Below, one piece after another: positions 1,477 to 1,579 of a stretch of 32,366 nt of DNA; the stretch's first letter is position 1; the number at the start of each line of letters is the position of its first letter. This DNA comes from Escherichia phage PhiR44_1: the sequence record PV340563. One strand, 5' to 3'. The position numbers and the translations under genes are program-made. The notes beneath the pieces are model-generated. The model made no database searches. It was not told the DNA's origin and saw nothing but the letters and a program-made list of their open reading frames with translations.

Positions 1477-1579
1477 CTATTGGTGACTTATATTTCCGTC
1501 AAAAGGTTGTGTATTGGTGACCTTTTGAGTGTGTTAGCCAGTCCCTAGAAAGGACAGGGGCGACCTAGAAGGGACTGGA
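1477..1579. promoter_or_regulatory. C/cox transcriptional switch region with candidate operator repeats
   Basis: Between the divergent C and cox genes: direct repeat TATTGGTGAC at 1478..1487 and 1512..1521; direct repeat CCTAGAA(A/G)GG at 1544..1553 and 1564..1573; inverted repeat CCAGTCCCT (1538..1546) / AGGGACTGG (1570..1578). Confidence 0.55.

Follow-up and report, generated by a model that had tools for sequence, protein, structure and literature searches.

Two sets of direct repeats and an inverted repeat lie between the divergent C and cox genes of Escherichia phage PhiR44_1, and the question they raise is which of them is read by the repressor C, which by Cox, and what role, if any, falls to the inverted repeat. 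The window analysed here is the whole stretch of 32,366 nucleotides (PV340563), numbered from its first letter. The original prediction, made from the letters of the window, had held that the choice between a C set and a Cox set could not be decided in this way. It can be decided: in coliphage WΦ the two copies of TATTGGTGAC are the mapped operator half-sites O1 and O2 (PMC1904263, PMC1904268), and a further report has WΦ Cox recognising a direct repeat of 12 nt within the Pe-Pc region (PMC5009727).

We performed a repeat search and recovered every predicted element. The direct repeat TATTGGTGAC was found at 1478-1487 and 1512-1521, with 10/10 matching positions and 34 bp from start to start. 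The second direct repeat pairs CCTAGAAAGGACAGG (1544-1558) with CCTAGAAGGGACTGG (1564-1578) at a spacing of 20 bp, matching at 13/15 positions overall and at 11/12 over the first 12 nt. The inverted repeat consists of CCAGTCCCT (1538-1546) and AGGGACTGG (1570-1578), 9/9 complementary with arms 23 nt apart. All of these lie, as had been proposed, between C, which bounds the region at 1465 on the minus strand, and cox, which opens at 1618 on the plus strand. A second perfect 9-bp inverted repeat, missed earlier, was found around the second copy of TATTGGTGAC and is formed by TCAAAAGGT (1499-1507) and ACCTTTTGA (1520-1528). As a model of chance, we shuffled the mononucleotides of the 152-nt intergenic region 3000 times. 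Of these shuffles, 0.8% held a perfect 10-nt direct repeat and 1.4% a 12-nt direct repeat with no more than one mismatch; one or more perfect 9-bp inverted repeats arose in 1.3%, and two or more in 0.3%. The real intergenic region has every repeat kind that was scored, a combination well outside what chance would give.

Next, we characterized the locus by its gene content and its nearest relatives. The left end of the window carries int (122-1132, minus), C (1172-1465, minus), cox (1618-1890, plus), orf78, B and A, which is the P2-type gene order int-C / cox-orf78-B-A with the divergent C and cox as the first genes of two operons. C encodes 97 amino acids with an HTH_3 domain (E 2e-08) and cox encodes 90 amino acids matching Phage_Cox (PF10743, E 9e-24); these domains, and the Pe and Pc promoters annotated in a near-identical WΦ record, bear out the reading of this region as the C/cox switch. 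BLAST against phage records placed coliphage WΦ and its close relatives nearest, at 99.3%. C has the same residue as WΦ C at all 97/97 positions (100%) and shares 46% identity with the P2 protein; for Cox, the identity is 100% to the WΦ protein and 45% to that of P2. Across the switch (1440-1640), 200/201 bases are the same as in both WΦ records (AJ245959, AY135739), the sole difference being a T for C at 1495, directly 3' of the Pe -10 and outside all repeats. The window as a whole is the WΦ genome permuted into prophage order and cut in the att core. The locus, on these identities, is a transcriptional switch from a P2-like prophage of the WΦ type. This 201-bp switch is common: 24 phage records carry it, as do 260 of the 5426 complete E. 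coli genomes; five of these 260 genomes have the T1495 variant, and in one of the five the prophage adjoins cpxP.

The early promoter Pe occupies 1466-1501 on the plus strand, with a -35 of TTGACA (1466-1471) abutting the C start codon, 17 nt of spacer and a -10 of TATATT (1489-1494), matching the sigma-70 consensus at 11/12 positions (1466-1494). The lysogenic promoter Pc occupies 1582-1618 on the minus strand, with a -35 of TTGATT (1618-1613) and a -10 of TGTTAC (1595-1590). In AJ245959, the annotated Pe feature corresponds to window positions 1464-1500 (plus) and the Pc feature (1875-1911) to 1582-1618 (minus). The WΦ Pe and Pc transcripts overlap by 82 nt (PMC1904263), and this overlap together with the mapped promoters places the Pe start at about A1501 and the Pc start at A1582. 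With these starts, O1 falls within the spacer of Pe, and O2 falls at +12 to +21. By annotation and published overlap, then, Pe and Pc stand face to face with overlapping transcripts, as in P2-type switches. A GATC (Dam) site at 1578-1581, corresponding to Pc +2 to +5, sits directly 3' of the inverted repeat CCAGTCCCT/AGGGACTGG; it was kept in 27/28 of the switch classes that we aligned, with flanking bases that vary.

The C operator has been mapped by experiment in WΦ. WΦ C uses 10-bp half-sites that are 34 bp apart (centre to centre) on either side of the Pe -10 (PMC1904268). The half-site is TATTGGTGAC, and changing O1 to CGCCAACAGT abolishes repression in vivo, for which both half-sites are needed; a single half-site is bound in vitro, and the bend that C puts into the DNA, of about 60 degrees, has its centre between O1 and O2 (PMC1904263). 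The wild-type WΦ Pe/operator oligonucleotide, as printed, is the same as window positions 1466-1521 except at position 1495. From these published experiments, the pair of TATTGGTGAC repeats is the C operator, with O1 at 1478-1487 (plus) and O2 at 1512-1521 (plus), and it has the form found in P2-type switches, that is, two direct, non-palindromic repeats at the early promoter. In WΦ, on identical sites, C bound at O1 and O2 represses Pe, and Cox binds the Pe-Pc region and represses Pc. In a lysogen of the present phage, C dimers on O1 and O2 would bend the DNA and shut Pe. We also considered a possible extra C site, TATTTGTGAC at 1309-1318, a one-mismatch direct copy inside the C gene and 169 bp left of O1, and rejected it: four such matches were found window-wide and 1.67 were expected, which is not significant. 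The WΦ authors had themselves dismissed extra C sites (PMC1904268) and called secondary C sites "very unlikely" (PMC1904263).

The operators are indeed unlike those of P2, which are two copies of GTTTAGAT 22 bp apart, and the original prediction had read this difference as a distinct immunity specificity. That reading holds with respect to P2 (heteroimmune) and fails as a claim of novelty, for this is the known WΦ class. One could argue from the dissimilar P2 operators that the repeats define a specificity undescribed so far, but C and the operators are identical to those of WΦ, the same switch recurs across the phage records and E. coli genomes counted above, and WΦ-like switches already form immunity class III of the P2-like coliphages (PMC3448106). 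Since C is 100% identical to WΦ C, we reject a new immunity class, the probability of which we regard as negligible. The repeat finding is correct and already known, as all of the differences from P2 have been published for WΦ. With C and O1/O2 the same as in WΦ, the immunity class is that of WΦ. Functional immunity with WΦ in both directions, as well as the binding of C and Cox to their sites, would be expected from the complete identity of proteins and sites, and the prophage is expected to be immune to superinfection by phages of the WΦ class. WΦ reportedly responds to the P4 antirepressor (ascribed to Liu and Haggard-Ljungquist, 1999), and the same response is expected here. For annotation, the prophage can be labelled with WΦ-type immunity, with both promoters, with a fully mapped operator for C and with a putative Cox site.

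For Cox, the assignment goes by elimination. The repeat CCTAGAA(A/G)GGAC, at 1544-1555 and 1564-1575, was the only 12-nt direct repeat that our search found in the Pe-Pc region, and for this reason we assigned it to Cox; it is most likely the WΦ Cox site. In a full-text search, no accessible paper was found to print the box sequences. A 2009 study by Ahlgren-Berg reportedly described a 12-nt direct repeat with imperfect copies, the partial loss of which severely impairs Cox binding, along with a weaker site in attP. Candidate box 1, CCTAGAAAGGAC (1544-1555, plus), lies at Pc +28 to +39 and candidate box 2, CCTAGAAGGGAC (1564-1575, plus), at Pc +8 to +19, and a degenerate middle unit, GGGCGACCTA (1558-1567, plus), keeps the 10-bp phase between them. 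The units in WΦ accordingly read GAAAGGACAG / GGGCGACCTA / GAAGGGACTG, or strong, degenerate, strong, at a phase of about 10 bp. When Pe fires, its first product Cox would bind these phased boxes at Pc +8 to +39. Cox would nucleate on the two strong boxes and fill the middle unit cooperatively as a head-to-tail oligomer. This oligomer would bend the DNA and close Pc to RNA polymerase, so that C synthesis stops. Oligomerisation, bending and repression of Pc are here modelled on P2 Cox, 186 Apl and lambda Xis. The mode of repression, whether by roadblock or by spreading, is something we can only infer, because the boxes lie downstream of the Pc start and not over the -10/-35 as in P2.

An alternative is that CCTAGAA(A/G)GGAC is a secondary C site, or has no function at all, and that Cox binds elsewhere in the Pe-Pc region. 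This alternative draws on the fact that the boxes were matched to the published 12-nt repeat by elimination and not by its printed sequence, and on the observation that flanking phage DNA alters C-DNA complexes in EMSA (PMC1904263). On the other side stand the lack of any other 12-nt direct repeat in the region and the WΦ authors' verdict on secondary C sites quoted above. We further compared 104 loci encoding C relatives, from 100% down to 36% identity, and these included natural, swap-like recombinants. Three loci (L073, L076 and L082) have C proteins at 69-72% identity and Cox proteins at 90-94% identity; their O1/O2 are different, and they keep the boxes at 8-9/12 and 10-11/12 positions. 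In four others (L063, L065, L066 and L079), O1 is kept at 10/10 positions and the boxes are different in all four; Cox is different (73%) in L065, L066 and L079, and the cox call of L063 is unreliable. These recombinants indicate that the TATTGGTGAC repeats track C and that the CCTAGAA repeats track Cox, not C, which argues against a role of the boxes as C sites.

The same box recurs in attP, where an excisionase must act, and this also speaks against the boxes being anything other than Cox sites. Cox-type boxes occupy 52-75 (plus) of the P' arm, with CCTATAAGGGACTGGA at 52-67 followed in 10-bp phase by AAGGGCTAC at 67-75. CCTATAAGGGACTGGA matches switch box 2 and its flank at 15/16 positions, and the pattern CCTA(G/T)AAGGGACTGGA has exact matches window-wide only at 52-67 and 1564-1579; at up to three mismatches, 0.27 matches to the 16-mer box pattern would be expected by chance in the window. 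The attP boxes lie between the att core, just past which the window begins, and two Int arm-type sites of the P' arm, TGTGGACA at 89-96 and 100-107 (plus); the consensus of P2-type integrase arm sites is tgTGGaCa (PMC3448106). The attP spacer is identical to the ogr-int spacer of WΦ, and the annotated Cox protein_bind feature of P2 has the same position, between core and P' arm. Class-specific boxes likewise recur in the attP of other classes, as AGCGGTTTGTAA in L095, CCGTTTCAAA in L096 and ATAAGCAGTTACAAG in L005. By sequence match, Cox-type elements are thus present in both the Pe-Pc region and attP, as is typical of P2-type switches. We infer that the attP box at 52-75 is used by Cox to direct excision, such that the same protein that represses Pc would act at the P' arm. 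That the boxes are not the Cox site at all now appears improbable, and the reading as a whole, a WΦ switch with C on the TATTGGTGAC half-sites and Cox on the CCTAGAA(A/G)GGAC boxes and the attP box, is one we hold with high confidence. Separately, AGGGACTGG with at most one mismatch occurs 16 times in the window, with 5 copies expected, and none of 100 shuffles reached 16; a fourth exact copy lies at 13804-13812 (minus). This excess could be an effect of composition or codon usage.

Finally, we turned to the inverted repeats, neither of which came up in the accessible papers that we searched for such structures. HP1 (TCAAAAGGT/ACCTTTTGA, 1499-1528) begins at the Pe start and holds O2 in its loop. 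HP2 (CCAGTCCCT/AGGGACTGG, 1538-1578) spans +5 to +45 of the Pc transcript and +38 to +78 of the Pe transcript, and its right arm overlaps Cox box 2. We aligned a set of 28 distinct switch regions with WΦ-like architecture, heteroimmune relatives included, and found that the positions of HP1 and HP2 were kept and that their sequence changes were compensatory. The arms of HP2 varied as CCAGTCCC/GGGACTGG, CCAGCC/GGCTGG, CCAACC/GGTTGG, CCAGAC/GTCTGG and AACACCTT/AAGGTGTT, and those of HP1 as TCAAAAGG/CCTTTTGA, CCCGAAAAGG/CCTTTTCGGG, GCAAATGG/CCATTTTG and GCTTGGTGG/CCATCAAGC. Over the 28 regions, 84.5% of cells were paired, compared to 31-52% when the partner columns were slid, and double changes occurred in 11/20 pairs. 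The covariation score was 0.242, compared to 0.07-0.11 in the slid controls, and none of 500 shuffles reached 0.242. Both helices were also predicted independently by RNAalifold. Single-sequence folds gave z scores of -2.2 to -3.5 on either strand, with HP2 at -2.7 on the plus strand and -3.5 on the minus strand.

Two other accounts of the hairpins were rejected. A role as terminators or attenuators is at odds with the lack of a U-run after either hairpin, and no intrinsic terminator was found in 1100-1950. A-tract bending as the sole cause of the conserved AAAAGG/CCTTTT of HP1 was rejected because L006 (GCTTGGTGG/CCATCAAGC), L100, L004 and L065, which are without A-tracts, keep the complementarity. 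No strand preference of the hairpins was found in per-class folding energies (Wilcoxon p = 0.55 and 0.83); wobble counts were 9 and 8 for G.U on the plus strand and 16 and 11 for A.C, which is G.U on the minus strand. An Rfam scan of 1300-1800 with E values up to 10 returned only noise, far below gathering scores, so the hairpins match no known RNA family.

The inverted repeat at 1538-1578 may also be read as a pair of head-to-head Cox boxes, with Cox nucleating from both ends and wrapping the DNA between them. On the minus strand its left arm reads AGGGACTGG, a 9-mer shared with box 2 and the attP box, and exact copies stand at 58-66 (plus), 1538-1546 (minus) and 1570-1578 (plus). There is little doubt that the right arm belongs to a Cox box, cox-boxes of P2 occur in both orientations within one target (PMC3936717), and a drifting protein specificity would also predict covariation of an inverted repeat. 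For WΦ, the exact copies make this reading plausible. It is weaker in other classes: the switch arm of L097 (GGGGCTGG) and its attP box (GGGTTTGG) differ at exactly the covarying positions, and L098 and L069 share one attP and have arms GGCTGG and GGTTGG. In all three of these loci the left arm complements the right arm, and HP1 covaries in the same way, yet holds no Cox box. Because the arms stay complementary where the attP box differs, the constraint looks like pairing and not like protein specificity, and we consider head-to-head Cox boxes unlikely, if still deserving of some weight.

From the covariation, we instead favour, though not strongly, the formation of stem-loops by HP1 and HP2 at the 5' ends of the overlapping convergent transcripts. 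Since HP1 starts where the Pe transcript does and HP2 at Pc +5, each convergent RNA would begin with a stem-loop. Such stem-loops would work as RNA, by protecting 5' ends, by antisense pairing or by controlling C translation. That they belong to an undescribed, conserved layer of nucleic-acid structure in the P2-type switch, comprising HP1 with O2 in its loop and HP2 with the Cox boxes, is a tentative proposal that we would not yet back at even odds. If true, the hairpins could be 5'-terminal stabilisers of both convergent transcripts, kissing stem-loops for antisense pairing within the 82-nt overlap, or alternative structures controlling C translation. Activity of a Pe reporter was about 100-fold lower with native flanks, an effect left unexplained there (PMC1904263), and the hairpins may be linked to it.

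Possible new knowledge from this locus is limited to the covarying inverted repeats and to a variation in half-site orientation among relatives. The latter came from a search of the switch regions, which lie on the minus strand at about 2326-2503 in each locus. In L075, L067, L006, L003 and L095, the best second copy of the O1 14-mer was inverted, at +34/+35, with matches of 11/14 (p = 0.003), 11/14 (p = 0.009) and 10/14 (p = 0.04). In the WΦ-type window, L098, L004 and L100, the second copy was direct, at +31 to +34. The inverted copy could be a flip of operator orientation, or it could represent anti-Shine-Dalgarno pairing in the Pc leader; minimum free energy folds of L067 and L006 pair the inverted element with the C ribosome-binding site. 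An inversion of O2, if true, would touch on a long-standing question: why a C dimer, being symmetric, recognises repeats in direct orientation.

Among known systems, the closest is the WΦ switch itself (Liu & Haggard-Ljungquist 1999; Ahlgren-Berg et al. 2007, 2009). C, Cox, O1 and O2 are all identical here, as are the sequences of the Cox boxes, the inverted repeat and the attP P' arm, and Pe and Pc are identical too save for base 1495 beside the Pe -10. The window differs from WΦ in the cargo after gene A and in the tail-fibre/orf44 region. The cargo (5897-9312) is unrelated to WΦ and carries a C-5 cytosine methyltransferase (5919-7070, PF00145) and, convergent with it on the minus strand, a 652-aa HATPase_c_3 protein (7111-9069) that matches PADLOC type II restriction enzyme models; together these look like a type II restriction-modification pair. 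The second region of difference, at 21780-25393, takes in gene G, the orf44 hotspot and the C-terminal portion of tail fibre H, and a 197-aa ORF located there (24686-25279) has no Pfam or PADLOC match.

With P2, the locus shares divergent C and cox genes, face-to-face Pe and Pc, C acting on two direct repeats that flank the Pe -10, repression of Pc by Cox, a Cox site (putative here) at attP between the core and the P' arm, and an inverted repeat in the Pe/Pc overlap. The half-sites of P2 are 8 bp long (GTTTAGAT) and 22 bp apart, compared to 10 bp and 34 bp here, and binding to a single half-site, of which WΦ C is capable, is beyond P2 C (PMC1904263). P2 has at least six copies of the cox-box TTAAA(G/C)NC(A/C) over the Pc -10/-35, whereas here two strong boxes stand 20 bp apart downstream of the Pc start, and the transcript overlap is about 35 nt in P2 compared to 82 nt here. 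The P2 inverted repeat in the overlap (TTTAGTGC...GCACTAAA, AF063097, 1931-1958; L107 in our comparison set) folds better on the Pe strand, at -15.1 compared to -7.6 kcal/mol, and partly overlaps a cox-box-like TAAAAGGCA.

Phage 186 is more distant. It has a large CI acting on inverted repeats, a CII function and seven Apl sites, whereas the repressor here is a single-domain protein of 97 aa (compared to a two-domain CI of about 190 aa) and no cII-like ORF was found between cox and B. In sequence, Apl and Cox are not closely related, and the likeness is an analogy of mechanism and not of membership. Shared with 186 Apl, and with the X1-X1.5-X2 sites of lambda Xis, is a small winged-helix directionality factor on direct repeats one helical turn apart, with sites both between the convergent lytic and lysogenic promoters and at attP. 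In 186 Apl and lambda Xis, a weakly conserved middle site is filled cooperatively (PMC7498355), and the strong-degenerate-strong pattern of the boxes described here is the same arrangement as in lambda Xis X1-X1.5-X2 and 186 Apl (PMC7498355).
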